From Escherichia phage A73: DNA of 64,000 bases. Both the position numbers and the translations under genes were made by a program. A model generated the notes under the pieces. That model was not told the origin of the DNA, made no database searches, and worked only from the letters and a program-made list of their open reading frames with translations. This document shows, piece after piece, positions 19,446 to 49,594 of the stretch. Position 1 is the stretch's first letter; every line of letters starts with the position of its first letter. The stretch is from sequence record OP778609; one strand, given 5' to 3'.

Positions 19446-21491
19446 TCAGAAAGGTGCGTCGTCGTCCCAATCATCCGGCTCTGTGTCCGGCACATCAGGA
19501 ATATCACCTGTGGATTCAACGATACTTTGTTGTTCCCACGTAGGTTCTTCTGAAGGTTGTTCCATTTCTTCCATAACCTTCTTGATCTCTTCCTCTTGCT
19601 CACGCAGGAAGTTATCATCCGGCTCAGGAATATCTTCCTCTTTAATATCTGAACGAGTGAGATCACTGTTTTGTTCAGACAGAGGTTGAATCTCTGCTGC
19701 TTTAGGCTTAAAGTCTGGAGAACGATGATCATCTTCTGGATGAGCGGCATACCACTCACGAAGAGTTTCATAAGGACTCTCTAAGAAGCCCTCTGGCGGT
19801 TCCAGATAATCACCCGTGTCAATGTCATAGAACACAGGGAATTTACCAGCACGACCGTGTTTACGGTCATCCAGAATAACAAAGTAAGAAGTGTTACGTT
19901 GTTTCATCGGGAGTTCTGGATCTTTGTTACGTTCAATACCCCACATGTAATAAGTGTTACGCATCATTGCACGGCTACCAGCAAACTGCGCTGACTGGAC
20001 TTGACCACCAAATTCATGAGGCTTACCAGATTCAGGCTTGTTAAGGTGACAGAAGCAATAATAGGTAAAGCCAAGCTCTTTTGCCAGTTTGGAGATCTCA
20101 TCAGAGAATCGTTCCAGTTCCTGGTTAGCTTCGGAAGCACTCATACCTTGCACAAGACGAGTGATTGGGTCAATAAAGATATCTTCACAACCTTCTACGA
20201 TCACTGCGTGACGGATAGCACCTTTCAGTTCATCCCATACTGCACGACCATAGTTGTTATAATAGATAACACTATCACCAACTTCATCAGTAGCCTTGAT
20301 CAGTTCTTCTTGCTTAAAGTAGCCACGTTGACCTTCAAATACTTCATTACCCCAAATGTCACGGAAAGTTCCATCTTCTTGAGGAATCATTACCTTTTCT
20401 GCGTTAACAAAGTCTTTATGATAACGCTTACCTGCGATCTTTTTACAGGTAATTTCGTTCTCTTCTTCAAACTTAAACACCGCAGCCTTTGACTTCTCAA
20501 TGCCTGTAATGTGTTCTACCATCTGGTTAAGAAGTTCACTCTTACCCATCTTGACCCCAGCCCCGATAAAGTAACCTTCACCTGGGCGACGGCCTAAAGT
20601 AAGCTTGGTCATGGTAGGCCAAGGGAATTTCTTACCAAGTTTAGGGATCTCATGGGCTTTTTCACGGAACTGTGAATAAGTCGAGAAACCATCCGGCACA
20701 TATTCCTTTGGCTTCATTGCAGCCCAAAACAACTGATCAGAAAGTCCTTTGTTATACATGTCGCAAGGGTCCATATCTTCTGGAATGTCCACGACTTTCA
20801 TTTGTGGAATTACAGAGTATACCGCTGCAACTGCATCTTTACCTTTCATGATCCCTTTGGCCTTCTCTGCCTCTGTTGCACGGTCAGCGTCGAAAGCTAC
20901 GATAATCTCTTCAAACTTACTCAGAAGCTTATAGTTATTCTTCTGTGATAAGTTTTGCACGGCATTGGATGTACCGTTAGAGATTGATACTACGGTGAAG
21001 TTAGGTTTACGGGTGGAACCATCCTTCGGTTTGTACTTCTCTGTCAATACCTGCCACAAGATTGCAGCATCATATTCACCTTCAGTGATAAAGATCATAC
21101 GTTTGGAAGACTTATTTGCACCTTCCAGCCCAAACATATCACAAGCCACAGATTGGAAACCAATAGTTGTAAAGTGACCTTTCTGTTGCTTAGGGATCGT
21201 AAGATCACGCTTCTTAAAACCTACAACCTTACCTTCCAATGTGTACGGAAAATAATGTGCTTCTGGAGTCATACCGTCTTTAGCTGACAACTTGGTACGA
21301 ATACCAAATCGTTTAGCTGTCTTTTCGTCGATACCACGCTCAGGGATACTTTTACACGGATAAGTCAATACGTCTTCAACTGTTTCTTCCACACGAGACA
21401 CACCACCACCATAATTACGTGCTACTGAAGCTTTAGGATTTTTATGTCCAAACTTATAACCGCCAAACAGACTTTCGCCAATAGTGCTCAT
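19446..21491 (-). CDS. T7 gp4-like primase-helicase (TOPRIM plus DnaB-like helicase) with acidic C-terminal tail
   Basis: 681 aa; TOPRIM ITEGEYDAAIL and FDADRAT; Walker A GAGVKMGKSE; CHLNKPESGKPHE; long acidic tail ending DDWDDDAPF; no N-terminal Cys4 zinc-binding domain. Confidence 0.85.
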   Translation of the reverse strand: MSTIGESLFGGYKFGHKNPKASVARNYGGGVSRVEETVEDVLTYPCKSIPERGIDEKTAKRFGIRTKLSAKDGMTPEAHYFPYTLEGKVVGFKKRDLTIPKQQKGHFTTIGFQSVACDMFGLEGANKSSKRMIFITEGEYDAAILWQVLTEKYKPKDGSTRKPNFTVVSISNGTSNAVQNLSQKNNYKLLSKFEEIIVAFDADRATEAEKAKGIMKGKDAVAAVYSVIPQMKVVDIPEDMDPCDMYNKGLSDQLFWAAMKPKEYVPDGFSTYSQFREKAHEIPKLGKKFPWPTMTKLTLGRRPGEGYFIGAGVKMGKSELLNQMVEHITGIEKSKAAVFKFEEENEITCKKIAGKRYHKDFVNAEKVMIPQEDGTFRDIWGNEVFEGQRGYFKQEELIKATDEVGDSVIYYNNYGRAVWDELKGAIRHAVIVEGCEDIFIDPITRLVQGMSASEANQELERFSDEISKLAKELGFTYYCFCHLNKPESGKPHEFGGQVQSAQFAGSRAMMRNTYYMWGIERNKDPELPMKQRNTSYFVILDDRKHGRAGKFPVFYDIDTGDYLEPPEGFLESPYETLREWYAAHPEDDHRSPDFKPKAAEIQPLSEQNSDLTRSDIKEEDIPEPDDNFLREQEEEIKKVMEEMEQPSEEPTWEQQSIVESTGDIPDVPDTEPDDWDDDAPF

Positions 21492-31463: not shown

Positions 31464-32027
31464 ATGAGTCAAGATAAAGAGTTAGCCATTGCGATATCCG
31501 TAGCTGCTTCTGCCCATGTTGACCAAGTAGATAAAGGGGGGAATATCTATATTCTTCATCCTTTGCAGGTGATGCAAACATTGCAGCAAAAGGGAAGGGA
31601 AGATTTAATGGCAGCAGGAGTTTTGCATGATGTGATTGAAGATACTGAAATCACTATGGAACACCTCTTTAAAAAGGGGATTTCAGAAAGAACCTTAGTG
31701 ATTGTCGATGCAGTGACAAAGAAACGTAAGCAATCTTCATCTGATTACCTAGAGGGGATTTTAGAGAGTGAGGGTGCTTGTCATGTTAAGCTTGCGGATC
31801 TTAAACACAACTTAGATATTCTGCGAACTTGTAGCACCACAGAAAAAGACTTGCAACGGGTCAGGAAGTATGTAACAATGCACTTGTTGATTACGGAGAT
31901 GGTTGATTGGTATGAAAGTATCGGAAGGTATCTCGATTATTGTGATTCTTTTGCCTATTCTAGCTATCTCGACGAACGTAAAGAATTTGTTCAGAAACTT
32001 ATTAAAAAATGGAAGGAGTTTAAATGA
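31464..32027 (+). CDS. small alarmone hydrolase (RelA/SpoT-type HD-domain (p)ppGpp hydrolase-like)
   Basis: 187 aa; HD-domain signature NIYILHPLQV ... AAGVLHDVIEDT ... IVDAVTKK ... HVKLADLKHN. Confidence 0.75.
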   Translation: MSQDKELAIAISVAASAHVDQVDKGGNIYILHPLQVMQTLQQKGREDLMAAGVLHDVIEDTEITMEHLFKKGISERTLVIVDAVTKKRKQSSSDYLEGILESEGACHVKLADLKHNLDILRTCSTTEKDLQRVRKYVTMHLLITEMVDWYESIGRYLDYCDSFAYSSYLDERKEFVQKLIKKWKEFK

Positions 32028-32557: not shown

Positions 32558-32627
32558 TTTAAAAACTTGTTGACTTAAGAAATAGAAAAGATATACTTAT
32601 CACATCAAAAACAAGAGGAGATATAAA

Positions 32628-33857
32628 ATGCAAGCAACTTATCAACGTATGGACCAAACCATGTTCAAAAAACGTATCAGTATCCGTGATATGGAACCAC
32701 TGATCCGTCTGGGCGCTTCCATCGGTAAGACCGTGTTCTTTTTTGGTGGTGCAGGTCTTGGTAAGTCTGAAAAAGTAAAACAGATCGCGGACTCTATGTT
32801 CCCACATCGTGTAGGAAATAACCTGTGTGATGTTCGTCTGTCCGATAAAGAGCCGCAAGATATTGCAGGTATTCCGATTCCGATCTCTTATCCAGATCCA
32901 AAGACTGGTGAAGAAGTTACCCGTACTGTATATGCTGTTCCAAACTTCTGGCCTACCGATCCTGATTGGGAAGGTATCGTGTTCCTGGATGAACTGCCGA
33001 ACGCACCATTGGGTACTCAGCACTCTGCATATCAGGTTATTCTTGATCACGTTGCAGGTGAACATAAGTTCCCGAAAGGTACTGTGTTTGTAGGTGCAGG
33101 TAACCGTGATACTGATGGCGCTGGGACAACATCTATGCCTGGTCCACTGGTTAACCGTATGATCATTGCAGAGGTCGATTATAATCTGGATGTGTGGATC
33201 GAAGATTATGCGATTCCGTTCCGTCTGCATCCGAACATTATTGGTTTCTTGAAGCAGTTTCCAGAGCATTTCTATACTGGTGACGTAGAAAACCGAAGCA
33301 CTCCGGTTTATTCATCTCCTCGCCAATGGAAAACCGCGTCTGACATTCTGTATAAGTACGATGCTGGCGAGATTAATGAATTTATCGCAGAGGTTGCCCT
33401 GGCAGGTACAGTTGGTGAAGGCTTGGAAGTGCAGATCCTTGCTTACCATTTACGTGCTAAAGAACTTCCTCCGATTGAAGATATCTTTAGTGGTGCAGTT
33501 AAAGAGCATAAACTTGATCGCAGCAAGAACGACCTTGTTTACGTACTGGCACAAACTGGTCTGCGTCGTATGGAAGATGAAGTTATGGATAACGATATGA
33601 CTGATGATAAGTTCCTTGAACGTGCAGGTAACTTCCTTACGTTCATGTACAATAACTATTATGCAAACAACAAGGATACGATGATTGCTTTGATCTTGGG
33701 CGTGTTCCGTGGTCCAAACGATAAGCCATCTATCCTGACTGTTAACCCGAAACGTCAGAAAATGATTCCGCTCATGCGTAAAAGTTGCCCGACTGTTTCT
33801 GCCGCAGTTATGGAATACATGACTCGCTATGGTCAACTGATTAAAGAATTCGAATAA
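32628..33857 (+). CDS. MoxR/CbbQ-like AAA+ ATPase (AAA_5 type)
   Basis: 409 aa; Walker A GGAGLGKSE, Walker B VFLDELPNAP; strong E. coli-like optimal codon usage (CGT, CTG, CCG, GGT). Confidence 0.75.
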   Translation: MQATYQRMDQTMFKKRISIRDMEPLIRLGASIGKTVFFFGGAGLGKSEKVKQIADSMFPHRVGNNLCDVRLSDKEPQDIAGIPIPISYPDPKTGEEVTRTVYAVPNFWPTDPDWEGIVFLDELPNAPLGTQHSAYQVILDHVAGEHKFPKGTVFVGAGNRDTDGAGTTSMPGPLVNRMIIAEVDYNLDVWIEDYAIPFRLHPNIIGFLKQFPEHFYTGDVENRSTPVYSSPRQWKTASDILYKYDAGEINEFIAEVALAGTVGEGLEVQILAYHLRAKELPPIEDIFSGAVKEHKLDRSKNDLVYVLAQTGLRRMEDEVMDNDMTDDKFLERAGNFLTFMYNNYYANNKDTMIALILGVFRGPNDKPSILTVNPKRQKMIPLMRKSCPTVSAAVMEYMTRYGQLIKEFE

Positions 33858-33937
33858 TCTCTTGACAACGAAAAACAGTTAACTTAATATAAGGGCATCT
33901 CGAAAGAGGTGTCCTTTTTTAATTTGGAGAAAATGAA

Positions 33938-35476
33938 ATGGCAAAACTTACGATTGAAGAAAGCAATATGATTGAAATGCAAGTCTCTGAAGCAGAGCGT
34001 ATCATCGAGGCTGCTAGTCTACAACTGATGCGGTTTAAGCCCTTCTACGGGGTAATGCTTTCGTCTATGCCTGTTAAAAAGGCGACGGAGTGGTGTAGTA
34101 CAATGGCGACTGATGGACGTAACCTGTATTACCATCCAGAGTTCGTTGCAGGTATGACAGAAGAACGTAAAAAATTGGTACTTGATCGACTTTCCAAAAC
34201 TGAGAAAGATCCTAAAAAGCTGAAAGAGTCCACTGAGTTTATTAATGTCTTCTATCGTCGCAAGACTGCCCGTGAGCTTGCTCTTATTCTTGAGCACGAA
34301 TGCGATCATGTGATCTCTGATCATGCCTCTCGCGGTAAAGGATTTAATCATGAACTTTACAACATTGCAGCGGATCATCGTATCAATACAACGGCGGTTC
34401 TTATTCACCAAAAGGGGGATGAGTTAGGTAAGGCATGGTTCCCTGCCGGAGAAAGAACAGTATTCGATAAGAATGCAGAATTTGGATTTATGGCCTGGTC
34501 TTACTGTGATTTCCGATTCAAAGATATGTATACTGAGCAGATCTATGAAATCCTGAATAAAGAGCAAGATGATAAAGAAAAATCCAAAGGGAAAGGTTCT
34601 GGTTCTGGAAGTGAAGAGGGTGATGGTGAAGAAGGTGGTCAAGGTCGTAAAGGTGTTGATCAGCACATGGATCAGAATGGTGATCCAGAAGATTCAGAAG
34701 GTGATGGTATCGAAGATGCACTAGGAATCGACCGTAAAGCGAAGCCTAAGCAAACAGCAGAGGAACGCCAGTATAACGATGGGGTTATGCGTCGAGCCAT
34801 TGAGAATGCCGTACAGGCAGCAGGAAGCGGTGCACCGGAAGATGCTCGTCGTTTTGTAGAAGCGGCGGGTAAACCAAAGATTAATTATCTTCGTTTGTTG
34901 CGTAAAACTATTGAACGTCTGTTCAAAGATGATGTATCATATCGTCGTTTGTCACGCCGTAGTCACTCGTTAACTCGGACTCTTCGTGGCTCGGGTTACT
35001 TATCTGGACGACAGACGATTGGTTTACCCTCAAAGAATAAACAGAAGACTATTCGTGCAGGTGTCTTCTTCGACGTATCGGGATCATTTAACGATGATCT
35101 ATTGCGTCCAACAATGCGTGAGATTCGTGGATTATGTAATCTTTACGACGAATTTGAGGTCACGATGGCTTGCTGGTCAACAAAGGTTGGTAACATCGAG
35201 ACGTATACGAAAAGAAACGTTGGTGAGATTGCTGACTATAAGATCAAAACGACATTTGGTACGGATGTTTCTTGTGTGTTTGAAGCATTAGATGAAATGA
35301 AAGACCCTATGGATCAGATCATCATCTATACTGACGGTTACTTTGCTGATGTATCCCAAAAGAAAGATTGGGCCAAAAAGTATGGTAAGAATGTTCTTTG
35401 GATCATCCTGGGTCGTGGGTCTTCGTTCACCCCACCTTTCGGTAAGGCAATTGATTTTGACAAGTATCTTAAATAA
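33938..35476 (+). CDS. vWA-domain protein with N-terminal HExxH putative metallopeptidase domain
   Basis: 512 aa; HECDH motif; acidic/Gly-rich linker; C-terminal vWA with MIDAS-like DVSGSF. Confidence 0.7.
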   Translation: MAKLTIEESNMIEMQVSEAERIIEAASLQLMRFKPFYGVMLSSMPVKKATEWCSTMATDGRNLYYHPEFVAGMTEERKKLVLDRLSKTEKDPKKLKESTEFINVFYRRKTARELALILEHECDHVISDHASRGKGFNHELYNIAADHRINTTAVLIHQKGDELGKAWFPAGERTVFDKNAEFGFMAWSYCDFRFKDMYTEQIYEILNKEQDDKEKSKGKGSGSGSEEGDGEEGGQGRKGVDQHMDQNGDPEDSEGDGIEDALGIDRKAKPKQTAEERQYNDGVMRRAIENAVQAAGSGAPEDARRFVEAAGKPKINYLRLLRKTIERLFKDDVSYRRLSRRSHSLTRTLRGSGYLSGRQTIGLPSKNKQKTIRAGVFFDVSGSFNDDLLRPTMREIRGLCNLYDEFEVTMACWSTKVGNIETYTKRNVGEIADYKIKTTFGTDVSCVFEALDEMKDPMDQIIIYTDGYFADVSQKKDWAKKYGKNVLWIILGRGSSFTPPFGKAIDFDKYLK

Positions 35477-35485
35477 GGAGGGTCT

Positions 35486-35857
35486 TTGAGCGAGTATACT
35501 TACAAGTTGTCAGTTGGTAGGCGTGGTGTGGTTATGACTATCAACATGATTAATGAGAGTGCGGAGGCTGTGAAGTGGTGGGCCTCCACCTTCAACGGGA
35601 AAGGTTTTACTTTATCGCGTCATAAGATTGAATCAGGAAAGCCGATAGATCTTGTCAAGGAGGACACTTTCTTGTATCCTGATCGTATCAGTGATGAAGA
35701 TATTGATTTCCTGTCCGCTACGGTTGGTAGTCTGTTAGATGAGGAGCCAGATATTGTAAGGTTGCTCTCTTTGCTTTCCGCAATGTGGTCAGCAGGTCAT
35801 GATGAGGAAAGTATGCATACGATGGTAAGGAATACGTTGAGACGTTGGTCTAAGTAA
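35486..35857 (+). CDS. hypothetical protein (TTG start)
   Basis: 123 aa; AGGAGG Shine-Dalgarno 5 nt upstream of TTG. Confidence 0.45.
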   Translation: MSEYTYKLSVGRRGVVMTINMINESAEAVKWWASTFNGKGFTLSRHKIESGKPIDLVKEDTFLYPDRISDEDIDFLSATVGSLLDEEPDIVRLLSLLSAMWSAGHDEESMHTMVRNTLRRWSK

Positions 35858-36177
35858 CAACATTTCCTTTATGCCCATTTAGGCATACAATACTATATTA
35901 GATGATAAACCCCTCAACCTGCTCGGTTGCTTCGACGGGGTTTATATATCTATTAAAAAATTAACCACACTCACATTCGTTCGGTACTTAATTTTTTAAG
36001 TCACCACAAAATTGTGTTGACACCACAATGAAACAGATGTAGAGTTAACAAGAGAAGGAAAGTCAATTGGATAAGTTTTACATATACTGTCTAACATTGG
36101 GATTGATCTTCATGATTGTTGGATCAGTGGGTAAAGTTTTACTCAATAGTTTTGGAATTTATTAAGAGGAGATCGTA

Positions 36178-36420
36178 ATGAGAGTACGTCAACATCGTGG
36201 TACATTGATCGAAAGTTTGAAAACTGTTAAACAGATTGAAAGTACAAAACAAGCTCTTGTGGATCATATCAACAAAGAGTTAGGTAAACCGTTTAACTTC
36301 TCTGTTGATTCGATCAGTATTGTGGAAAAAGGAGTTGATGAGCGTATCAACTGGAACAATCATCTCATCCTGATTGATGGATTTGGTGTATTTGGTTATT
36401 GTGATCAACATCCTGTTTAA
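36178..36420 (+). CDS. hypothetical protein
   Basis: 80 aa; RBS GAGGAG. Confidence 0.5.
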   Translation: MRVRQHRGTLIESLKTVKQIESTKQALVDHINKELGKPFNFSVDSISIVEKGVDERINWNNHLILIDGFGVFGYCDQHPV

Positions 36421-36540
36421 GAGGTGGTTATGGGTATTAAATGGTGGTTGTTTGTAGTTCCTGCAAATGATAATGCAGGTGGTGATGATAAACGTGCAGT
36501 CGCACAAACCTATGTCTATGGTCGTCGTTAAGGGGTTATT

Positions 36541-41281: not shown

Positions 41282-41617
41282 ATGGCACTAGTCACTAAGT
41301 ATTTCATTGAAGGCCAGCAAGCGGCGCAACAAGGTTACAGCCGTGTTACTCGTTATAAGAAAGAAGAAAACAAGATTGAATTTTTCAAGGGTTACGATAG
41401 TGTAAACCGTGATGCAATGGTCCTACGCTTCGAATCCGATCCAGTGGGCAAGCCTGTTACCTCTTACCAGGCATCACCGCAGATTGTTTATGTTGGTACT
41501 GTTAAAGAATGTAACGACAAGTTAATCACTTTGAAGCAGGCCGATCGTGCGGGTTACTTTGTTGTTTACACTGCTGACGGTAAGCCTTACCAGTACGAAA
41601 GCAAATATTTTAAATAA
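41282..41617 (+). CDS. hypothetical early protein
   Basis: 111 aa; RBS GAGGA. Confidence 0.5.
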   Translation: MALVTKYFIEGQQAAQQGYSRVTRYKKEENKIEFFKGYDSVNRDAMVLRFESDPVGKPVTSYQASPQIVYVGTVKECNDKLITLKQADRAGYFVVYTADGKPYQYESKYFK

Positions 41618-41707
41618 AAAGTATTGACAGAAAGAAAGAAGTAAATTAAATTATACCACGTAACGCCGCAATCGTGCGGCAATAAAAACTGATAGGAATT
41701 GAACAAA

Positions 41708-41920
41708 ATGGCTAAAATCATCATTAAAAAATCCCGTGTATCTTCTGTTGCTCGCGTCGAAATGGTAAACACTATGCCAGGTTACCGGACTCGCGAGGAA
41801 GCCCGAAGCGTTGCAAAACAGATTAAAGCCCGTGGCTTAACTGTAAGTGCACCGACCAAAACACAAGAAGGATGGAAGGTATCTATTAAATCCGGTACAC
41901 TGTCAATCAATAAACACTAA
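41708..41920 (+). CDS. hypothetical early protein
   Basis: 70 aa from the ATG (track start is an upstream TTG at 41699); RBS AGGAA; basic protein. Confidence 0.45.
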   Translation: MAKIIIKKSRVSSVARVEMVNTMPGYRTREEARSVAKQIKARGLTVSAPTKTQEGWKVSIKSGTLSINKH

Positions 41921-41983
41921 TAGCCAAAACATTAACGGGGCAACTTTGCCCCTCATTAAATAACATTATCCAGGAGTATTAAC

Positions 41984-42142
41984 ATGACTAGCCAAAACAC
42001 TAACATTGAAAAAATCAACATTACTAAAGAGCGTAAAGCATGGAATGAAACATTAAATCTCAAAGGTAAGAAGCTAAATAAAACTAAACGCGATCGCAGT
42101 ACAAAGCGGGCCTTTTGTGAATTTACAGCGGATCAAGAATGA
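41984..42142 (+). CDS. hypothetical small basic protein
   Basis: 52-aa ORF absent from the track; preceded by GGGGCAACTTTGCCCC hairpin and RBS CAGGAG. Confidence 0.4.
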   Translation: MTSQNTNIEKINITKERKAWNETLNLKGKKLNKTKRDRSTKRAFCEFTADQE

Positions 42143-42438
42143 TGATTAAAGTTATTGCACTTACTACTTTATTGTGTATACCATTTTTGGCGCACGGTAC
42201 TAAGTTTTACGGTGCTAACTTGATAGATTGTAAAGCTCATATGCTGGACCATGAAACAGGCAACAAATTTGTTAAGCCTTTCCAGATCAATCCAGCGGCA
42301 TTTAGTGACGGTGTTTTGTATCAGGAAGGTAAAGCCAGTACGCTGATAATCCATTACGATCCAGCGACAAAGAAAGGTAGCTTATCAATCCAGATTGAAG
42401 GCGCGGAAGAGTTTTCAGGTAAAATAATCTGCAATTAA
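42139..42438 (+). CDS. secreted small protein
   Basis: 99 aa; N-terminal signal peptide (ALTTLLCIPFLAHG). Confidence 0.5.
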   Translation: MMIKVIALTTLLCIPFLAHGTKFYGANLIDCKAHMLDHETGNKFVKPFQINPAAFSDGVLYQEGKASTLIIHYDPATKKGSLSIQIEGAEEFSGKIICN

Positions 42439-42444
42439 TATGTT

Positions 42445-42476
42445 AAGGCCCGCCATTGTGCGGGCCTTTCTTTTAT
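42445..42476 (+). terminator. rho-independent terminator
   Basis: GGCCCGCCATTGTGCGGGCC hairpin plus TTTCTTTTAT. Confidence 0.7.
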
Positions 42477-42498
42477 GAAAATAATTTTGAAAATGTTG

Positions 42499-42526
42499 TT
42501 GACAGCACCGATTAAAAGCGTATAAT
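42499..42526 (+). promoter_or_regulatory. sigma70-like promoter with leader hairpin and no downstream ORF
   Basis: TTGACA-N16-TATAAT; leader hairpin CGGGGAACCAAACAAGTAACTCCCCG near 42541-42566; no ORF before the next promoter. Confidence 0.55.
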
Positions 42527-42616
42527 GTATTACATCAGGACGGGGAACCAAACAAGTAACTCCCCGTTAAGTAGTCCAGGAGTAAGACATACGAAAACCT
42601 CCCCTGATAAAATAGT

Positions 42617-42644
42617 TTGACAATAGTTTTTAGTACTGTATAAT
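42617..42644 (+). promoter_or_regulatory. sigma70-like promoter plus leader hairpin
   Basis: TTGACA-N16-TATAAT; hairpin GGGGAGAATAGTTCTCCCC near 42657-42675. Confidence 0.6.
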
Positions 42645-42695
42645 ACATTACATCAAGGGGAGAATAGTTCTCCCCACATCAAAGGAATCAAAACA

Positions 42696-42923
42696 ATGGC
42701 TATCGTAATCACTCGCGTATCTGGTACAGTTGGCAATGCGGCAGTAGTAGCGGTTATCACTAACAAGAAAGGTGCGGAACTACATTTTGCAATGTATAAC
42801 TGGTCAGTTGATGAGTTTGGTCAGTACGCTAGTGTAGAATACATTGAAACCTATCAAGTGCCGTCGATTAGTTTAACTGATTTGGGCGTTGAGCGTATCC
42901 TTTGCCTGGATGAATTAAATTAA
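42696..42923 (+). CDS. hypothetical early protein
   Basis: 75-aa ORF with promoter, hairpin and RBS. Confidence 0.5.
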   Translation: MAIVITRVSGTVGNAAVVAVITNKKGAELHFAMYNWSVDEFGQYASVEYIETYQVPSISLTDLGVERILCLDELN

Positions 42924-42931
42924 AAAAGTAC

Positions 42932-42959
42932 TTGCAAAGTAAGTCGGATAAAGTATAAT
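42932..42959 (+). promoter_or_regulatory. sigma70-like promoter plus leader hairpin
   Basis: TTGCAA-N16-TATAAT; hairpin GGGGAGAAATGATTCTCCCC. Confidence 0.55.
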
Positions 42960-43008
42960 ACATTACATCAAGGGGAGAAATGATTCTCCCCACTAAAAGG
43001 AAACTAAA

Positions 43009-43152
43009 ATGAAAACTTGTCAGTGTGGTAAAAAGTCTATTACTGGTCTGCGTCGCGGTGTTGCTTTATGCCAGTATCATTACAATAGTCAAGTATGGGG
43101 TAAAACGTGGGCTGACCAGGTTGAAGCAGCAAATAAAGCAAAAAGTAATTGA
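43009..43152 (+). CDS. small zinc-ribbon-like protein
   Basis: 47-aa ORF absent from the track; CQCG ... CQYH; own promoter, hairpin and RBS. Confidence 0.45.
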   Translation: MKTCQCGKKSITGLRRGVALCQYHYNSQVWGKTWADQVEAANKAKSN

Positions 43153-43176
43153 CAGTAAGAAGAAAAAGAGTAAACT
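43149..43176 (+). promoter_or_regulatory. sigma70-like promoter plus leader hairpin
   Basis: TTGACA-N16-TAAACT; hairpin GCGGCAATAGCGCCGC. Confidence 0.55.
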
Positions 43177-43227
43177 GTATTACGTAGAGCGGCAATAGCG
43201 CCGCCACATCAAAGAGAGAGAATCAAA

Positions 43228-43440
43228 ATGGCTAATATCCGCACTGCACTGAAAAATGCAAAACAAGTTTTATTCTCTGACGAGGAAGTATTTAATAAAG
43301 ATATTACAGGCGTTCGAAATCTTAAAGATATCTATGACATTTTCAGTATACGCATGAATATGAAACGTGTTGGAACGTTCGGGAATAAAGTACTGTATCA
43401 GAACGGTGATTATAATTTTACACTGACTATTATTAGTTGA
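43228..43440 (+). CDS. hypothetical early protein
   Basis: 70-aa ORF. Confidence 0.5.
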   Translation: MANIRTALKNAKQVLFSDEEVFNKDITGVRNLKDIYDIFSIRMNMKRVGTFGNKVLYQNGDYNFTLTIIS

Positions 43441-43533
43441 AAGTTTTAGTCTAGCGCTATTGACTTAAACCGATAGTGCTGGCATAATAACTTTTATCAA
43501 GTAGTACAAATCAAACAAAGAGAGAATACAATC

Positions 43534-43773
43534 ATGGCTAATAACAAAACTTTCAACGGTCACAAAAACAAAACTCATTGGAATGTTTCCTTGTGGATTA
43601 ATAACGATGCATCACTGTATCGACTGGCTAATGATTTCATCGCCGCTAACACTAATCGTAACGATGCGGCCCGTCATATGATGTTATTTTTAGAACAAAC
43701 CGGACAACATAAAACACCGGACGGATTCAAGTATAGTACTACTGCAATCCGTGCCGCGATGGTTGGAATGTAA
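43534..43773 (+). CDS. hypothetical early protein
   Basis: 79-aa ORF; promoter-like TTGACT ... CATAAT upstream. Confidence 0.5.
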   Translation: MANNKTFNGHKNKTHWNVSLWINNDASLYRLANDFIAANTNRNDAARHMMLFLEQTGQHKTPDGFKYSTTAIRAAMVGM

Positions 43774-43787
43774 AAAGAAAAAAGTAG

Positions 43788-43816
43788 TTGACACAAACAA
43801 GCAAAACAAGTAAATT
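43788..43816 (+). promoter_or_regulatory. sigma70-like promoter plus leader hairpin
   Basis: TTGACA-N17-TAAATT; hairpin GCGGGGAATGGCCCCGC. Confidence 0.55.
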
Positions 43817-43866
43817 AATCACATCAGGCGGGGAATGGCCCCGCTAAAAGAGAAGAGAGAAATCAA

Positions 43867-44196
43867 ATGGGCTTTTTATCTATCGTACAGACTAACTTCG
43901 AAAATGATTTTATTGCTCAAGCTATCAACATTGACAAAGGTATCCCAAATATCAATTTTGGTTTCAATAGTGGTGGTTATGAGAGATACCAGTATTTTGT
44001 AACTGACGATGGAAGTGTTTTAGGTATCAATACGGTGATGGCTAATATCCAAAACATTAATTTCAATGATCCCGATGAGCGCTCATTCTATATCGTCGGT
44101 GTCCAGGTGAACTACAATGATGACTCTTTAATCGATGATTACACTGGCGAGACGTTAGAAAGTGCTTACAGTGATGAATCAGAAGAAGAAAACTAA
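43867..44196 (+). CDS. hypothetical early acidic protein
   Basis: 109 aa; strongly acidic C-terminus. Confidence 0.5.
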   Translation: MGFLSIVQTNFENDFIAQAINIDKGIPNINFGFNSGGYERYQYFVTDDGSVLGINTVMANIQNINFNDPDERSFYIVGVQVNYNDDSLIDDYTGETLESAYSDESEEEN

Positions 44197-44210
44197 TATT
44201 AAAAAAGTAG

Positions 44211-44239
44211 TTGACTGAAAGAGTATAAAGAAGTAAGAT
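44211..44239 (+). promoter_or_regulatory. sigma70-like promoter plus leader hairpin
   Basis: TTGACT-N17-TAAGAT; hairpin GGGGGAACATTTCCCCC. Confidence 0.55.
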
Positions 44240-44294
44240 AATTAACGAATAGGGGGAACATTTCCCCCGTAAACAAAAGAAAGAGAGATTAAAA

Positions 44295-44477
44295 ATGACA
44301 GAACTGATTGCAACTACAAAGATCGAAGGCGTTAACGATGTTACTTTGTCCTATGATCCTTCTACTCTGGTTTATGTTGTGAAATATGGCAGAATGATCG
44401 CAGAACTTGATTGCATTGATGAGGCTTTCGAAAAATATTTCGAACTTATCAATATTGCTTATGATGACTACCGTTAA
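44295..44477 (+). CDS. hypothetical early protein
   Basis: 60-aa ORF. Confidence 0.45.
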   Translation: MTELIATTKIEGVNDVTLSYDPSTLVYVVKYGRMIAELDCIDEAFEKYFELINIAYDDYR

Positions 44478-44507
44478 TATACAACGCAAAAATAGGAAGG
44501 TGATAAA

Positions 44508-44717
44508 ATGATCAATGAAAAAACAATCAATGACGTTCGAGAGGAAGTTTTAGCCGTTGCCGTAGAATCTGGCGCACGTCAGGCATTTTGGAAAGCTACT
44601 GATCTTTACCCTGAGCAAGCCGAAAATATTCTCAATCAGGTCAGCGTTAAACTTGAACAAATGGGAAAACTGAAAACAAGTGAGCGCCTCGACCAAATCA
44701 TTAAAGAAAGTTTTTGA
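44508..44717 (+). CDS. hypothetical early protein
   Basis: 69 aa; RBS AGGAAGG. Confidence 0.5.
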   Translation: MINEKTINDVREEVLAVAVESGARQAFWKATDLYPEQAENILNQVSVKLEQMGKLKTSERLDQIIKESF

Positions 44718-44781
44718 TTGACTTTTAACATTGCCCCTATTAGTATTCAGGGGCAAGATTAAAAGAAACAAGGACACAAAG

Positions 44782-45093
44782 ATGAACGATATTGTTAGCA
44801 TCATAGGTTTACTGGGCATAGGTTACATCGCCACATCAATTACAATGAGTTACTTCAATAAAAGGCGTGATAAAATGTTTTGTTACTTTGAGTATCGTTA
44901 CCGTGGTAAGGTTGGATCATCCCGTGACTATGGTCCGATGTTAGAGATTGATGCGGTTGGCGCTATGCAGTATCGCCAGTCACTAGGGGCTGAAATAATT
45001 TTTGAAGTGTACCGCAGTACAGAAGAAGAGATCCACGACATTATTGACGAGCGTCAATATTACCACGAACAACAAACTAAACGCAGGGCTTAA
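44782..45093 (+). CDS. small membrane protein
   Basis: Start set at the ATG with RBS AAGGA; N-terminal TM helix (IVSIIGLLGIGYIATSI); track ORF begins at 44731. Confidence 0.5.
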   Translation: MNDIVSIIGLLGIGYIATSITMSYFNKRRDKMFCYFEYRYRGKVGSSRDYGPMLEIDAVGAMQYRQSLGAEIIFEVYRSTEEEIHDIIDERQYYHEQQTKRRA

Positions 45094-45096
45094 CAT

Positions 45097-45237
45097 ATGA
45101 CTAATACAAACCGACAAAAAATCATCAAAACTAAAAAACTTGATTTCGATACTTATCAAGAATGTAAGAAGAAGAAAGTAAAAGATAAGCGAGAGAACAA
45201 GCGGCACGAATGGATCACTAATACAATCGATCTTTAA
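45097..45237 (+). CDS. hypothetical small basic protein
   Basis: 46-aa Lys-rich ORF absent from the track; weak RBS. Confidence 0.3.
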   Translation: MTNTNRQKIIKTKKLDFDTYQECKKKKVKDKRENKRHEWITNTIDL

Positions 45238-45284
45238 CAATCAAGGCCCGCTATAATGTGGGCCTTTCTTTATGGAGAACAGAC

Positions 45285-45512
45285 ATGATTAATATTCTTT
45301 CACTTACAGAAGTGATCCGCTTCCTCAAAAACAACGCCCTGGGAACGTCTATAACGTATCTAATCCCTCAAGGTAAGGATTATGCCAGTGTTACACGTTC
45401 AATCACTGCTACGGCCTCCAGAGAAGAAATAAAGGTCAGTGTAAGCCAATTGCTCATCGTTGATCCTTCCTCCTGTGAAACAATCCAGGCTGTAAAGATA
45501 ATTAGAAAATAA
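45285..45512 (+). CDS. hypothetical early protein
   Basis: Start set at the ATG with RBS GGAGA; the track GTG start at 45258 lies inside the terminator hairpin. Confidence 0.45.
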   Translation: MINILSLTEVIRFLKNNALGTSITYLIPQGKDYASVTRSITATASREEIKVSVSQLLIVDPSSCETIQAVKIIRK

Positions 45513-45597
45513 TTTAAAAAACTTATTGCATCCATTATCGAGAAGATGTACATTAGTTTCATCAAGACGAGATGAAGATAACCCAAAGGTGATTGCT

Positions 45598-45891
45598 ATG
45601 TTATACGAAGTTTTTGCAGGTTTCTGTTTTTATGGTGCTGCCGCCGTTCGCCAGTGTGATGACTATGTAGTTGAGTCATTCGATGATCCTTTGGCGTGTG
45701 AGATTGTTACTACAGCTTATGAGCAAGATCGCCGTTGGATTAATCCAGCCTGTATCGCATCGCCTGAGGTTGAACCTATGCCGGAAGGTGAGGAATTAAC
45801 AGAGGAAGACTTGCAAGAAGTAAAAGAAGTTATGAGCTACATGATTGATAATCTGGACGCTGAAAACTTACAACGTGCATTGCAAAAATAA
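45598..45891 (+). CDS. hypothetical early acidic protein
   Basis: 97 aa from the internal ATG with RBS AAAGGTGA; the track start at 45526 lies inside the promoter. Confidence 0.45.
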   Translation: MLYEVFAGFCFYGAAAVRQCDDYVVESFDDPLACEIVTTAYEQDRRWINPACIASPEVEPMPEGEELTEEDLQEVKEVMSYMIDNLDAENLQRALQK

Positions 45892-45905
45892 TTTTAAAAA
45901 AGTAG

Positions 45906-45934
45906 TTGACTCGAAGAAACAAAACAATTAAATT
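45906..45934 (+). promoter_or_regulatory. sigma70-like promoter plus leader hairpin
   Basis: TTGACT-N17-TAAATT; hairpin GCGGGGAATGGCCCCGC, near-identical to the module at 43788. Confidence 0.55.
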
Positions 45935-45984
45935 AATCACATGAGGCGGGGAATGGCCCCGCTGAACAAAAAGAGATTATGAAA

Positions 45985-46359
45985 ATGGCTAAAAATACTA
46001 ACGTTTGTGATTACGCTGATCTGGTTACTCTGAATGCAGATTCTAAAATCAACCTGTCAAACGTGGAAGCGGTGCACGTCCTGGCCCGCCGCTGGTTCCA
46101 AAAGTTATATGGTAATACTTATTTCTCTTTAAGTGTAGATGTGGAGATCGCTGGTAAATTGGTAGAAGTAGTTAACGTCCCGTTTAAATATGGTTATGGT
46201 GATCATTTCGATACCGTGGCACTGGAAGAATTTAGCAAGGTTATCAACATGGAAGGAAAAGAGTTTTCAGAGTATAGTTACCTTTCCCGTTTTTGCCGTG
46301 ACAATAACATCCCTGTTTATTCGAACGCTGTTGATGTTAAACGCAAAAAAGATATGTAA
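45985..46359 (+). CDS. hypothetical early protein
   Basis: Start taken at the second ATG (MAKNTNV); track start 45979. Confidence 0.5.
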   Translation: MAKNTNVCDYADLVTLNADSKINLSNVEAVHVLARRWFQKLYGNTYFSLSVDVEIAGKLVEVVNVPFKYGYGDHFDTVALEEFSKVINMEGKEFSEYSYLSRFCRDNNIPVYSNAVDVKRKKDM

Positions 46360-46365
46360 TTATTA

Positions 46366-46393
46366 TTGACAGTACATAGAAAACAAGTAAACT
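46366..46393 (+). promoter_or_regulatory. sigma70-like promoter plus leader hairpin
   Basis: TTGACA-N16-TAAACT; hairpin AGCGGGAACACTTCCCGCT. Confidence 0.55.
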
Positions 46394-46446
46394 GTATTAC
46401 ATAGAAAGCGGGAACACTTCCCGCTTATATTCCAGGAGTAAGAGAA

Positions 46447-46698
46447 ATGATCGAACAAATCAAAACTACGACGGCTAATGTAACGGGTACAGTATCGCAC
46501 TTCATTAGTGATGAATCACGGGGCGTTCCTTATTGTGCAGTACATATAAACAAAAATGGCGACTACTGGTTAACGGCGTATGGATCTTATTCTTTCGGAC
46601 GTAGTGCACACCAAAAGATCCTAGATAAAGTACAGCCAACGGGTAAAAATATTACCGCTGAGATGTTTAATAAATCACTTGCAAAGTTAAAAGCGTAA
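46447..46698 (+). CDS. hypothetical early protein
   Basis: 83 aa; RBS CAGGAG. Confidence 0.5.
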   Translation: MIEQIKTTTANVTGTVSHFISDESRGVPYCAVHINKNGDYWLTAYGSYSFGRSAHQKILDKVQPTGKNITAEMFNKSLAKLKA

Positions 46699-46759
46699 AG
46701 TATAATACATCACATCAGGCGGGGAGTGTTTCCCCGCCACAAAACGAAAGGCCAACAAA

Positions 46760-46930
46760 ATGAAAGCAAGCATGATGGTAGCGACTGTAAACATTATCAT
46801 TGGTAACGGAACTGGACACCACGAAATCATAAAAAACAAGGCTTACTCTATTAGCTCCCTCAAAAACGACATGCGTTTATCTTTGGGCCAAATCCGCGCT
46901 TACTTTCGTGAAGGCTATCAGAAAAAGTAG
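46760..46930 (+). CDS. hypothetical small protein
   Basis: 56-aa ORF absent from the track; preceded by a TATAAT element and GCGGGGAGTGTTTCCCCGCC hairpin. Confidence 0.4.
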   Translation: MKASMMVATVNIIIGNGTGHHEIIKNKAYSISSLKNDMRLSLGQIRAYFREGYQKK

Positions 46931-46998
46931 CAAATTAATAGTTGACGCAAAGGTCATTTTAATTTAATCTATAACAAATCGACAAATGAGGCATAATC

Positions 46999-47301
46999 AT
47001 GTTTACCAAAGCAAATGAGTATTTCTTTTTAGATTTACTTGATGAAAGTATCTTTGTAGCTATGGGCAAAAAGTCAATGGTCTTTAAACGCAAAAAAGAT
47101 AATGGTGAATTTGAAGATAGCGAAGCCGTGCTAACAGTCAAGGAAGGTAAAGAACCTGCAACGTCTGTTTTAATCTACACCTTGACCAACGGCGGTGAAG
47201 TTATCGCATCAGGTAGTAGCCATCCGATCCCAAAATCGGAAGTGAACACTGTAATTATTGGTTTTGTTGCAGCTTGTTTCTACGAGGAAAAAAGCAAATG
47301 A
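46999..47301 (+). CDS. hypothetical early protein
   Basis: 100 aa; RBS GAGG. Confidence 0.5.
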   Translation: MFTKANEYFFLDLLDESIFVAMGKKSMVFKRKKDNGEFEDSEAVLTVKEGKEPATSVLIYTLTNGGEVIASGSSHPIPKSEVNTVIIGFVAACFYEEKSK

Positions 47302-47462
47302 ATCCGCAAAATTTATCTTATGTAAACTGGCCCAATAAGGCTGAGAAGAAAGAAAACTTGAAACGTCTGGTTAACTTTTATCGTGAAGCTGGTCATAGTA
47401 AAGTAACAGCGGTTAAAATGGCAAAGCGCCACCTTAACAAGCCAAGTACTAAACTAATTTAA
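47298..47462 (+). CDS. hypothetical small basic protein
   Basis: Start at the ATG overlapping the upstream stop (ATGA); track ORF 47274. Confidence 0.4.
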   Translation: MNPQNLSYVNWPNKAEKKENLKRLVNFYREAGHSKVTAVKMAKRHLNKPSTKLI

Positions 47463-47534
47463 AAAACTTGTTGACGTTGGCTTGTGCCGTACCTATAATG
47501 GACGGCATAGGCAAACGAAATAGGATTTATAGAA

Positions 47535-47741
47535 ATGAAAAAGAAAATTGTATATAATATTATTAGCTTTATCGCAACTATCCTCCTGGCTATTGCTGGT
47601 CTATCTTTGATTGTTGCAGTAGGATCTCTGTTTCCTGGGGCAATAAGTATTAGCATAGCTTTCGCCGCATTGTCTGTTTTTACAGGGTATGCAGGGATTA
47701 AAGTTACTTACTGGTCAGAAGATTACAAATATTCAAACTAA
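47535..47741 (+). CDS. small membrane protein (two TM helices)
   Basis: 68 aa, hydrophobic; promoter TTGACG-N17-TATAAT upstream. Confidence 0.5.
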   Translation: MKKKIVYNIISFIATILLAIAGLSLIVAVGSLFPGAISISIAFAALSVFTGYAGIKVTYWSEDYKYSN

Positions 47742-47754
47742 ATTGAGGTGTAAG

Positions 47755-47904
47755 ATGTACAAGCTATTAACCTGGGAAACAGAATCATCGTCACCGATCA
47801 GCCGGACCTTTTTTGATTTGTGCACGGCTTACAGGCTGGCAAAGGGAGGATATCATAAGGCCCAAATCATTGATGAATTTAATGTTATCCTTTATGAATT
47901 TTAA
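47755..47904 (+). CDS. hypothetical small protein
   Basis: 49 aa from the ATG with RBS GAGGTG; the track ORF starts inside the previous gene. Confidence 0.4.
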   Translation: MYKLLTWETESSSPISRTFFDLCTAYRLAKGGYHKAQIIDEFNVILYEF

Positions 47905-48033
47905 TCAATTCATACACTTAAAAGAAAGTTAGAAAAAGTTTTAAAAAGTGGTTGCAACAGGTATTGGATAGTAGTATAGTACTTTCAACGGGGCGAGATG
48001 GCCCAAAACGAAAAAACTTGAAAGGTGATTATC

Positions 48034-48129
48034 ATGATGGCAATTTTCTTAGTTTCTCTTCTGGTTGCTGTATGTTCTGCCACTGCTGCCGCTGTACTTT
48101 ATGACACTCGCTACAATGAGGAATAATAA
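48034..48129 (+). CDS. small hydrophobic peptide
   Basis: 31-aa ORF absent from the track; promoter TTGCAA-N17-TATAGT and RBS AAGGTGA. Confidence 0.35.
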
Positions 48130-48131
48130 AA

Positions 48132-48350
48132 ATGAATATTGTCAACATTACAGGTAAGACCGAGATCCTTAAGAATCTTGCACCAGGTGAGTCCACCGTA
48201 TGGATCTGCAAAGATGGAGAAGTAGAAAAACAAATGAGATTGTTTACCGCTATTTGTTGTCGGTTAAACATGAAAGTTACACAAATCCGGTCGATGATTG
48301 TTAGTGTGGGAAACATTCCGACTGAATGCATAATTCTTACAAAGATTTAA
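48132..48350 (+). CDS. hypothetical early protein
   Basis: 72 aa; RBS GAGGAA. Confidence 0.5.
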   Translation: MNIVNITGKTEILKNLAPGESTVWICKDGEVEKQMRLFTAICCRLNMKVTQIRSMIVSVGNIPTECIILTKI

Positions 48351-48426
48351 AAATAGCTTTACAACAACGATAAAATCAGTACAATACAAATCAGGCAATA
48401 AAGCCGACTAAAGAAAGGTAAAGACC

Positions 48427-48666
48427 ATGCAAACTATTATCACTAAATTTCTTCCTCCTACTAATACCCGTGGCGCTCGCATCAAAGCAAAATGTTGGTT
48501 GACAGATATCACTATCGCCTATCCGGTAGCCGAGATCAACGAAGCCCATAAACTGGCGGCAGAAGTGTTAATTACAAAATTGAAGATGACAACAGATATT
48601 GATTGGAATATCGTTGCAAGCGGTGAAACACCGGACGGCAGCGGCTACGCTTTCATTATCAAATAA
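48427..48666 (+). CDS. hypothetical early protein
   Basis: 79 aa; RBS AAAGG. Confidence 0.5.
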   Translation: MQTIITKFLPPTNTRGARIKAKCWLTDITIAYPVAEINEAHKLAAEVLITKLKMTTDIDWNIVASGETPDGSGYAFIIK

Positions 48667-48720
48667 TCATAAAGCGGCGGGAATAGTTCCCGCCTTATTA
48701 AAGAGAAAAGAGAAGATATC

Positions 48721-48999
48721 ATGACTATTACTAAATTATCCACCGAAGAGATCACCAACATTCTGACTACTAATCTTGAAGATTGGAAGCGTGAAGCTGA
48801 TTTGCAAGCAACCTGTAAGCTGAATACAGAGCTAACATCAGACGATATTGAAACGATCGTCCATGCTGATTTCTATGATGCTTTGCATGATGATTCTATC
48901 ATCCTTGAAACGATGCTAGATAATGCCTGGATTAATCCCGATTTGGCGGCGTATGGTCGTAGCACCTTTATCACTATCCACAATATTTATAACCGTTAA
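48721..48999 (+). CDS. hypothetical early protein (paralog of 49671-49949)
   Basis: 92 aa; MTI(T/A)KLSTEEI ... TTNLE(D/Q)WKREAD ... FITIH(N/D)IYN shared with the other copy. Confidence 0.55.
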   Translation: MTITKLSTEEITNILTTNLEDWKREADLQATCKLNTELTSDDIETIVHADFYDALHDDSIILETMLDNAWINPDLAAYGRSTFITIHNIYNR

Positions 49000-49126
49000 G
49001 AGGCGATAAATGGTCCTGTAACAGCCTAAAACGGCGAAAGTATGCAATCACCTTACTTGACGATATTCTACGCACTGGCTTACACTGGGGCTTTTAAAAG
49101 GGCACAAAATAATTCGAAAAAAGTAG

Positions 49127-49588: not shown

Positions 49589-49594
49589 AAAGTA

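Follow-up and report, generated by a model that had tools for sequence, protein, structure and literature searches.

A MoxR-class ATPase gene with host-like codon usage and its metallopeptidase-like VWA partner in Escherichia phage A73

Why does one gene of an adjacent pair carry host-like codon usage beside a partner gene of ordinary usage, and what might the two products do for the phage that encodes them? These questions are raised by a locus of Escherichia phage A73 (sequence record OP778609), analysed here within a stretch of 64,000 nucleotides (nt) that is referred to as the window. An initial annotation had placed a gene pair at 32628-35476, and a listing of open reading frames (ORFs) returned both genes at exactly these positions: a gene for a MoxR-class AAA+ ATPase of 409 amino acids (aa) (32628..33857), which matches PHROG 1297 (E 7.5e-101), and a gene for a 512-aa DUF2201 protein (33938..35476), recognised by Pfam and called the partner below. 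Both lie on the plus strand, as do the motifs and signals described for them. The molecular identity of the pair is near-certain. The codon shift of the ATPase gene is well beyond chance, moderate rather than extreme, and it is an old, maintained trait of the lineage formed by the W70 group of phages and Certrevirus.

Codon usage and transcription signals of the ATPase gene

For the codon test, the longest ORFs that start with ATG and encode at least 60 aa were chosen greedily so as not to overlap. The codon adaptation index (CAI) was calculated with the weights of the Sharp & Li E. coli table, and z values were based on the expectation given by the protein sequence and the synonymous codon frequencies of the other genes. 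Compared in this way with the other ORFs of the window, along the lines of a check suggested by the initial annotation, the ATPase gene stood out with a CAI of 0.481 versus an expected 0.273 (z=8.5, rank 1 of 126 window ORFs). Codon usage of the partner gene was average (z=0.6), and the other ORFs mostly had a CAI of 0.2-0.4, with one 139-aa ORF nominally above the ATPase. Because the window is devoid of structural genes, the codon test was redone on the whole genome of Escherichia phage W70, which is 97.4% identical to A73 over the 3.5 kb surrounding the pair. There the ATPase gene was 4th of 228 ORFs in raw CAI and 2nd of 228 by its z value of 7.9. Only the gene of the major capsid (head) protein had a higher z (z 12, CAI 0.694), and that of the tail sheath was practically equal (z 7.8, CAI 0.472); both were identified by PHROGs. 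When the index was built on phage genes instead (capsid, decoration and sheath genes of W70), the ATPase ranked 2nd among the 225 remaining ORFs. The bias was seen in all four quarters of the gene.

The codons behind this shift were described in the initial annotation as six that are used almost exclusively, which goes too far: their shares in the ATPase gene range from 44 to 81% (CGT 0.81, CTG 0.50, CCG 0.44, GGT 0.77, ATC 0.50, AAC 0.79), versus 48%, 18%, 20%, 50%, 41% and 41%, respectively, in the rest of the window. The host-optimal shift as such is real, with significant enrichment in five of the six codon families (Fisher p 9e-5 to 6e-3). Enrichment of ATC was not significant (p=0.34), and the codons for Asp, Tyr and His lean the opposite way. 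Likewise, the comparison with highly expressed E. coli genes holds in that the ATPase gene is the most host-adapted ORF of the window by z; it is generous in that a CAI of 0.48 is moderate when set beside E. coli ribosomal-protein genes.

The bias is shared by the ATPase genes of two Certrevirus phages, Cronobacter phage CR8 (CAI 0.544, z 8.0, rank 1 of 86) and Pectobacterium phage POP15 (CAI 0.571, z 8.8, rank 1 of 67), whose proteins are 74-76% identical to the window ATPase. Since both phages carry it, the bias predates the split of the W70-group and Certrevirus genera. It is absent from the ATPase gene of the rV5-like phage nomo (CAI 0.302, z 1.55, rank 14 of 75). The protein sequence is constrained as well: dN/dS of the ATPase gene was the lowest nearby (0.022 versus 0.05-0.09 in neighbours), and its nonsynonymous difference to CR8 was 0.16 versus 0.26-0.45 in neighbours.

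The ATPase gene is preceded by a sigma70-like promoter, TTGACT-16-TATACT (32570..32597; 10 of 12 matches, 31 nt 5' of the ATG), and by the Shine-Dalgarno sequence AGGAG (32616..32620, 7 nt 5' of the ATG). Promoters stand at the same place in CR8 (TTGACT-17-TATAAT) and POP15 (TTGACA-16-TATAAT) in otherwise diverged sequence, and GGAG-containing Shine-Dalgarno sites precede the ATPase in these two phages as well. Between the genes lies an intrinsic-terminator-like hairpin (33891..33922) with an 11-bp stem, a GAAA loop and a T6 run; its free energy is -16.5 kcal/mol (z -4.4), and 0 of 200 shuffled sequences were as stable. Hairpin and T-run are kept in CR8 and POP15 with different stem sequences. 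A second sigma70-like site, TTGACA-17-TAATAT (33862..33890), ends at the foot of the hairpin and has a counterpart at the same place in POP15 (TTGACA-16-TAAAAT). Judged by its sequence and position, it presumably serves the partner gene: RNA initiated at this site would not include the 5' arm of the hairpin, and the polymerase could continue into the partner gene. Altogether, 23 strong intergenic sigma70-like sites were found in the window, mostly before small rightward ORFs at 41-54 kb, and with such sites in the region the pair is probably read early by the host polymerase. High expression of the ATPase, as suggested by the initial annotation, is a reasonable reading of a gene with its own consensus-like promoter, a strong Shine-Dalgarno sequence, a terminator and sheath-level codon usage.

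Two other accounts of the bias have to be weighed against high expression. According to one, codon usage reflects timing rather than abundance, the gene being tuned to the unmodified host tRNA pool of the first minutes of infection, in which it would have to be translated before the pool is altered by phage tRNAs and host shut-off; this would be compatible with the function proposed below. tRNA genes were not found in the window, and W70 has five at 34737-36447 (Met-CAT, Tyr-GTA, Gly-TCC, Gln-TTG, Pro-TGG). A timing effect would agree with the sigma70-like promoter of the ATPase gene, with its low content of rare codons (4.4% versus 11.7% elsewhere) and with its avoidance of GGA and GGG (6% versus 33% in the rest), the codons read by the phage tRNA-Gly(TCC). 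However, CCA and CAA are not avoided although they are also served by phage tRNAs, and many neighbours combine equally strong sigma70-like promoters with ordinary codon usage, so that timing in place of abundance seems unlikely to us. The other account, also raised in the initial annotation, traces the bias to a recent horizontal transfer of the gene, be it from the host or from elsewhere. The GC content of the ATPase gene is indeed slightly above that of its surroundings (0.445 versus about 0.40), but GC content at third codon positions is normal (0.389; genome mean 0.376, standard deviation 0.062), and blastn of the gene against 5,426 complete E. coli genomes gave no match. According to tblastn both genes are conserved across Vequintavirinae, and ATPase and partner have diverged equally from their rV5-like orthologues (37% identity each, single reciprocal hits). 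Synteny is kept, CR8 and POP15 have the gene in the same position and with the same bias, and the codons favoured by the shift are specifically those optimal for translation, T-ending ones included. Recent acquisition is therefore extremely improbable.

Identity and predicted structure of the two proteins

Direct library searches with the ATPase returned little. Pfam gave 0 families even at E<=10, NCBIfam gave 0 matches and phmmer against PDB sequences found nothing; PHROG 1297, labelled 'ATPase', was the sole direct library match. A family alignment was built from 30 of 77 homologue clusters. When its members were scanned singly against Pfam, AAA_5 was matched by 2 of the 30 (best 3e-5) and bpMoxR by 6 of the 30 (best 2e-4), and the family profile matched the AAA domains of midasin at 5e-13. 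All motif coordinates given here for the two proteins were verified by translation. Walker A, GGAGLGKS (residues 40-47; 32745..32768), has G40, G43, G45, K46 and S47 invariant in the 30 homologues, Walker B, IVFLDE (residues 117-122; 32976..32993), has D121 and E122 invariant, and the sensor-1 motif AGNR (residues 157-160 with N159/R160; 33096-33107) is invariant, as are N176/R177 (33153-33158) and the sensor-2-like P231/R232 (33318-33323). Candidates for the arginine finger are thus present among the conserved arginines.

The AlphaFold model of the ATPase had a mean confidence (pLDDT) of 88.4, and its best Foldseek matches were NorQ (5e-8 to 1e-7, TM score 0.56-0.65 on target length), the Rubisco activase CbbQ (6L1Q, 3.8e-7) and CHU_0153 (2R44, 1.8e-6). 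The top PDB folds were thus NorQ, NorQ-NorD complexes and CbbQ, followed by dynein and RFC. Two β-hairpins of the model, at residues 82-103 (strands 82-89/96-103) and 142-147 (strands 142-143/146-147), are predicted at the helix-2 and pre-sensor-1 insert positions of clade-7 AAA+ proteins. The AAA+ core and lid occupy approximately residues 1-290, followed by a helical C-terminal extension at about 290-409; as the NorQ and CbbQ alignments span at most 292 columns, this stretch of ~120 residues is probably peculiar to the family. The protein is a complete MoxR-class AAA+ ATPase, which would be expected to form a hexameric ring. The initial description as a 'classic MoxR (AAA_5)' protein is therefore right about the MoxR type, borne out by motifs, midasin profile and NorQ/CbbQ fold, and wrong about AAA_5, given the blank Pfam result; this branch of ATPases is divergent and mostly viral. 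A PADLOC match of the ATPase to DolB, at 0.01 over 50 residues, was disregarded.

The partner was assigned by profiles without difficulty. Both Pfam domains of the DUF2201 pair (PF13203 and PF09967) scored above their gathering cut-offs, DUF2201_N with 91.5 bits versus 23.2 (E 9e-26) and DUF2201 with 33.0 bits versus 26.4 (E 7e-8), in line with the domain type foreseen by the initial annotation, and both were carried by all 58 partner homologue clusters. phmmer of the partner against the PDB gave noise only. The zincin-like N-terminal domain (about residues 1-215) is followed by a linker and a helical region. The HECDH motif noted initially is present at residues 120-124 as an invariant HExxH: in the segment HECDHVISDHASR (34295..34333), H120, E121, H124, H129 and R132 are invariant across 30 aligned homologues, the most distant of which is 23% identical. 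In the AlphaFold model (pLDDT 78) HExxH lies within a predicted helix at residues 111-127. A profile of the N-terminal domain matched M48 peptidases, with BepA at 1.6e-3, the minigluzincin MJ1213 at 2e-3, and HtpX and Ste24 further down a range to 0.4. These alignments are weak but consistent and cover only the ~50 residues of a strand and the HExxHxxxxH segment, in which H129 is the candidate third zinc ligand; fold searches with the full-length model gave VWA matches only.

The acidic, Gly-rich low-complexity linker of the partner (about residues 205-270; 34550..34747) varies in length among homologues and is predicted to be disordered, with pLDDT below 50 at residues 219-248. The C-terminal VWA domain (about residues 372-512) carries the DVSGS motif of a metal ion-dependent adhesion site (MIDAS) (35072..35086; D379, S381, S383), completed by the invariant T442 (35258-35263) and D466 (35330-35338). 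In total D379, S381, G382, S383, G441, T442, T465 and D466 are invariant in the 30 homologues and make up a full MIDAS. Fold matches of this protein include the VWA folds of NorD, Rea1-MIDAS and BchD.

Both proteins carry wrong labels in databases. The partner is called 'HNH endonuclease' in PHROG 1314, in CR8 and in several phage records, and 'putative anti-sigma factor' in rV5-like phages, and the name 'ribosomal protein uS19' was given to a homologue of the ATPase from Salmonella phage SSBI34. Literature searches for DUF2201 gave nothing relevant, and those for N4-like phages together with von Willebrand gave no result.

Among characterised systems, NorQ/NorD and CbbQ/CbbO are the best structural matches of the phage ATPase, with sequence identity of just 15-17%. 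The layout of the partner, an N-terminal domain, a disordered linker and a VWA domain with MIDAS, is that of NorD (PMC9976466; PMC13036017). One NorD adaptor serves one NorQ hexamer (PMC9976466); a finger of its VWA domain sits in the pore, the MIDAS grips an acidic patch of the target, and the motor strains the adaptor linker (PMC13036017). For the pore finger, the Arg-rich, low-confidence segment 330-371 of the partner is a candidate only. Unlike NorQ and CbbQ, the phage ATPase has the extra helical C-terminal extension of ~120 aa, and unlike in NorD and CbbO, the N-terminal domain of the partner is HExxH peptidase-like and a denitrification or Rubisco context is lacking. Midasin/Rea1, the best profile match of the ATPase to solved structures and, with the Rea1 MIDAS, among the fold matches of the partner, is a ring of the AAA_5 type, which pulls proteins off a complex in cooperation with a MIDAS domain. 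It differs as a giant eukaryotic single polypeptide with six fused AAA modules and no peptidase.

Viral systems come close in composition. The group 2.2 pair of jumbo phages is the same domain pair, a MoxR AAA+ protein and a vWA protein with an N-terminal metallopeptidase (PMC7824862), and tblastn to jumbo phages GAP32, PBECO4-like and Atu_ph07 gave 21-28% identity for the window proteins. The carrier here, however, is a 137-kb Vequintavirinae phage, and the assembly role published for the jumbo-phage pair fits it poorly. Acidianus two-tailed virus also encodes a MoxR ATPase and a VWA partner (cited in PMC7824862), a likeness drawn by description only; this virus infects archaea, and its pair, in which the VWA partner lacks a peptidase domain, serves tail development. 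The rV5-like phage Bas54 is a member of the same subfamily and has the same two-protein composition; in rV5-like phages 3.6 kb separate the two genes, which are encoded on opposite strands, and the ATPase gene is not codon-optimised (z 1.55 in nomo). Finally, a MoxR plus vWA core is common to the phage pair and the MoxR-vWA ternary conflict systems (Kaur et al. 2020, PMC7159879), a likeness supported by the weak bpMoxR matches of 6 of the 30 ATPase family members and by a pair in a bacterial metagenome-assembled genome (MAG) near Mrr-like and SNF2 genes. Unlike these systems, the phage pair is not linked to a third effector or β-propeller and sits in a phage, not in a bacterial immunity locus.

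Distribution and genomic setting of the pair

The family is large. Against 1.84 billion cluster representatives the ATPase profile found 16,916 at E<=1e-3 and 12,311 at E<=1e-10, and tblastn of the ATPase found 841 phage records, among them N4-like and jumbo phages, one cyanophage and one Thermus phage. The two genes are adjacent in the W70 group, Certrevirus (CR8, POP15), Aeromonas phage 4L372XY, an environmental phage-like contig, with the AAA gene immediately upstream of the DUF2201 gene, and the bacterial MAG. They co-occur but stand apart in rV5-like, Seunavirus-like, N4-like and jumbo phages. In the MAG (GCA_900524185.1, 396-6257) a 366-aa AAA_3 MoxR protein and a 418-aa DUF2201 protein are encoded with a gene overlap of 14 bases, directly after genes for a 1,168-aa SNF2/ResIII helicase and an Mrr-like nuclease, a setting that resembles a defence island. 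The annotators of POP15 noted similarity to Synechocystis Sll7029 and Sll7028.

Close relatives of A73 at this locus are, besides W70, phages A5-4, LTH01, A7_1 and UPEC06, which are 94-95% identical over the same 3.5 kb. All five are unclassified Vequintavirinae of 137-145 kb with E. coli hosts. The gene order common to the window and Certrevirus runs from an HD-domain protein over small ORFs and a 177-aa protein to the ATPase, the partner and a ~125-aa protein. A third partner was looked for in the downstream 123-aa gene (35486-35857), which has no similarity to the gene after the rV5-like ATPase, and Pfam domains of a β-propeller or effector type were not detected in the flanking genes.

In A5-4 and A7_1 a free-standing HNH homing endonuclease gene of 495 nt stands between ATPase and partner. 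In A5-4 it occupies positions 1834-2328 of the locus, equivalent to about 33925-33938 of the window; in both phages it lies 3' of the hairpin and uses the ribosome-binding site of the partner, and its stop codon overlaps the partner start. Upstream of the pair, past the divergence point at ~31.4 kb, the rightward unit begins with a gene (31464-32027, plus strand) for a 187-aa HD-domain protein similar to the hydrolase portion at the N terminus of RelA/SpoT (Pfam HD_4, 8.6e-8; TIGR00691, 2.7e-15 over residues 10-94). This protein is kept in CR8 (gp111) and POP15, where it is annotated as ppGpp pyrophosphohydrolase, and it could be a phage alarmone hydrolase.

Farther downstream, at 41600-53700 (plus strand), small ORFs form an array in which a strong sigma70-like promoter (at least 10 of 12 matches) stands 40-56 nt before every ORF; one of these promoters is a perfect TTGACA-16-TATAAT at 42617-42644. 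The arrangement has the look of an early region whose genes are each served by their own promoter. The 139-aa ORF with the top raw CAI of the window (0.489) lies here (53150-53569, plus strand; function not assigned, PHROG 12277, E 3e-87) and, with its own TTGACA-18-TATAGT promoter, may be another highly expressed early gene. On the minus strand, at 19446-21491, the window has one intact 681-aa ORF. W70 carries at 52084-53399 a 197-aa primase/helicase fragment beside an annotated HNH homing endonuclease, so that the primase/helicase gene appears to be interrupted in W70 and intact in the window, the equivalence being judged by coordinate offset only.

Possible function of the pair

The initial annotation called the function of such pairs in phages unknown, a statement overtaken by a role proposed in 2021 and by knock-out data in a 2025 preprint. 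Iyer et al. 2021 described the MoxR and metallopeptidase-vWA pair of jumbo phages and proposed, by analogy to Acidianus two-tailed virus, a role in virion assembly and proteolytic processing (PMC7824862). In the HIDEN-SEQ preprint, which reports transposon sequencing of Bas54, both the MoxR ATPase gene bas54_0063 and the putative metallopeptidase gene bas54_0055, the DUF2201 orthologue, were non-essential on E. coli K-12, insertions being recovered at 60 of 64 TA sites of the former and at 81 of 86 of the latter. A clean knock-out of the MoxR gene rendered Bas54 sensitive to DS-28, a two-gene predicted defence system from a clinical isolate, and so did a knock-out of the unrelated 99-aa gene bas54_0140. 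In resampling on clinical isolates, log2 fold changes were -7.23 for MoxR (q=0), -2.20 for the metallopeptidase (q=0.009) and -5.48 for bas54_0140 (10.1101/2025.11.20.689424). A literature search on the nature of DS-28 found nothing. Orthology of the window ATPase to the Bas54 MoxR gene was shown via the sibling phage Bas53, whose gene order Bas54 matches: the window proteins and those of Bas53 and nomo are reciprocal unique hits with 36.7% (ATPase) and 36.9% (partner) identity over 98-99% of length. In rV5-like phages rIIA/rIIB, which counter Rex exclusion (PMC11879866), follow the ATPase gene at a distance of three genes downstream and share its strand. The CRISPRi-ART paper holds no data on the ATPase gene.

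Taken together, there is in our judgement an even chance that the pair is a two-part MoxR/VWA remodelling machine, made early and abundantly, that acts in counter-defence; an anti-defence role in Escherichia phage A73 as such likewise stands at about even odds. The 409-aa protein would be the ring-forming AAA+ motor and the 512-aa protein its adaptor, whose VWA domain may dock on the ring while its MIDAS metal site grips an acidic patch of a target protein. The HExxH domain of the adaptor could add target recognition and probably target cleavage. As a self-contained transcription unit, the motor gene would allow early, large-scale synthesis, well above that of the adaptor. The motor is taken to be early and abundant because of its sigma70-type promoter, strong ribosome-binding site, sheath-level codon usage and own terminator. 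It is insulated from the adaptor gene and probably made in excess, which matches the six-to-one ratio of NorQ to NorD. The machine may thus be an accessory, host-directed one that neutralises an anti-phage defence protein by ATP-driven remodelling, cleavage or both. The pair heads a rightward region in which sigma70-like promoters abound, away from structural genes, and this position, together with the early-type promoter, a demand for fast and abundant synthesis and the only genetic data available, favours counter-defence.

Several observations weigh against the counter-defence machine. Its functional evidence consists of a preprint on an orthologue that is only 37% identical, separated by 3.6 kb from a partner encoded on the other strand, and free of codon bias (z=1.55). 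The resampling sheets for two isolates are identical, which makes the strain behind the depletion of the partner ambiguous. A gene of the bas54_0140 type (tblastn with bas53_0136) is absent at E<1 from the window, W70 and the CR8 and POP15 loci. As evidence of expression, codon bias and consensus motifs are indirect, and the literature gave no transcriptome or proteome data for the ATPase gene in Vequintavirinae. Proteolysis by the partner is putative, the sequence likeness to M48 peptidases being weak (E ~2e-3), and the nearest solved relatives, NorQD and CbbQO, are maturation or activase chaperones, not protein-destroying machines.

These relatives and the jumbo-phage proposal lead to two other functions. 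If the pair were a virion-assembly chaperone with a maturation protease, it would fold, assemble or trim structural proteins, as was published for the same domain pair (PMC7824862), and an ATPase with the codon usage of abundant structural proteins would suit hundreds of subunits. However, the genes lie outside the structural module (1-34 kb in W70), behind sigma70-like promoters and among early-type small genes, N4-like copies at ~10-21 kb stand among non-structural genes, and a core assembly role is hard to reconcile with two Bas54 orthologues that are both dispensable on K-12, ~94% of their TA sites being disrupted. We consider this function quite unlikely. Still less probable is a pair that inserts a metal cofactor or activates an enzyme in the manner of NorQD, CbbQO or CobST; it would open a metalloenzyme of the phage or the host, such as one of the phage ribonucleotide reductases, so that the cofactor can be loaded or reset. 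The closest solved folds, NorQ and CbbQ for the ATPase and the NorD VWA for the partner, speak for it, and W70 encodes class Ia and class III ribonucleotide reductases. Nevertheless, the N-terminal domain of the partner is a conserved HExxH module and not of the NorD, CbbO or CobT type, Pfam gave no CobS_N, CobT or chelatase match, which also speaks against an aerobic cobaltochelatase CobS/CobT, the partner being a DUF2201 protein and not CobT, and genomic linkage to the reductase genes is absent. Moreover, the phenotype of the orthologue depends on the host strain and is tied to a defence system.

A more far-reaching form of the counter-defence machine, which we put forward only tentatively and regard as possible rather than probable, is a two-component unfoldase and metalloprotease, produced at once and massively on infection, that dismantles or cleaves a host immune protein or complex, of the DS-28 type or others. 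If true, it would represent an undescribed class of anti-defence based on ATP-driven destruction instead of stoichiometric inhibition or modification, and codon optimisation confined to certain clades would point to lineages whose fitness is limited by this activity.

Few AAA+ systems are as poorly understood as MoxR/VWA pairs. The present family is very large (841 phage records and ~17,000 metagenome clusters at 50% identity), its first experimental handle in phages is the 2025 preprint, and misleading annotations of both proteins are spreading through databases. The pair type had already been described; new here is the lineage-specific 'high-output' design of a motor gene beside an ordinary adaptor gene. 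The testable picture offered is that of a motor made early and in abundance, with a protease-VWA adaptor in sub-stoichiometric amounts and a target in the host, and the W70/Certrevirus clade is a good system for a substrate search. If the destruction of host immune proteins holds true, the pair, with more than 12,000 cluster representatives (E<=1e-10), could be among the most widespread counter-defence machines of tailed phages.

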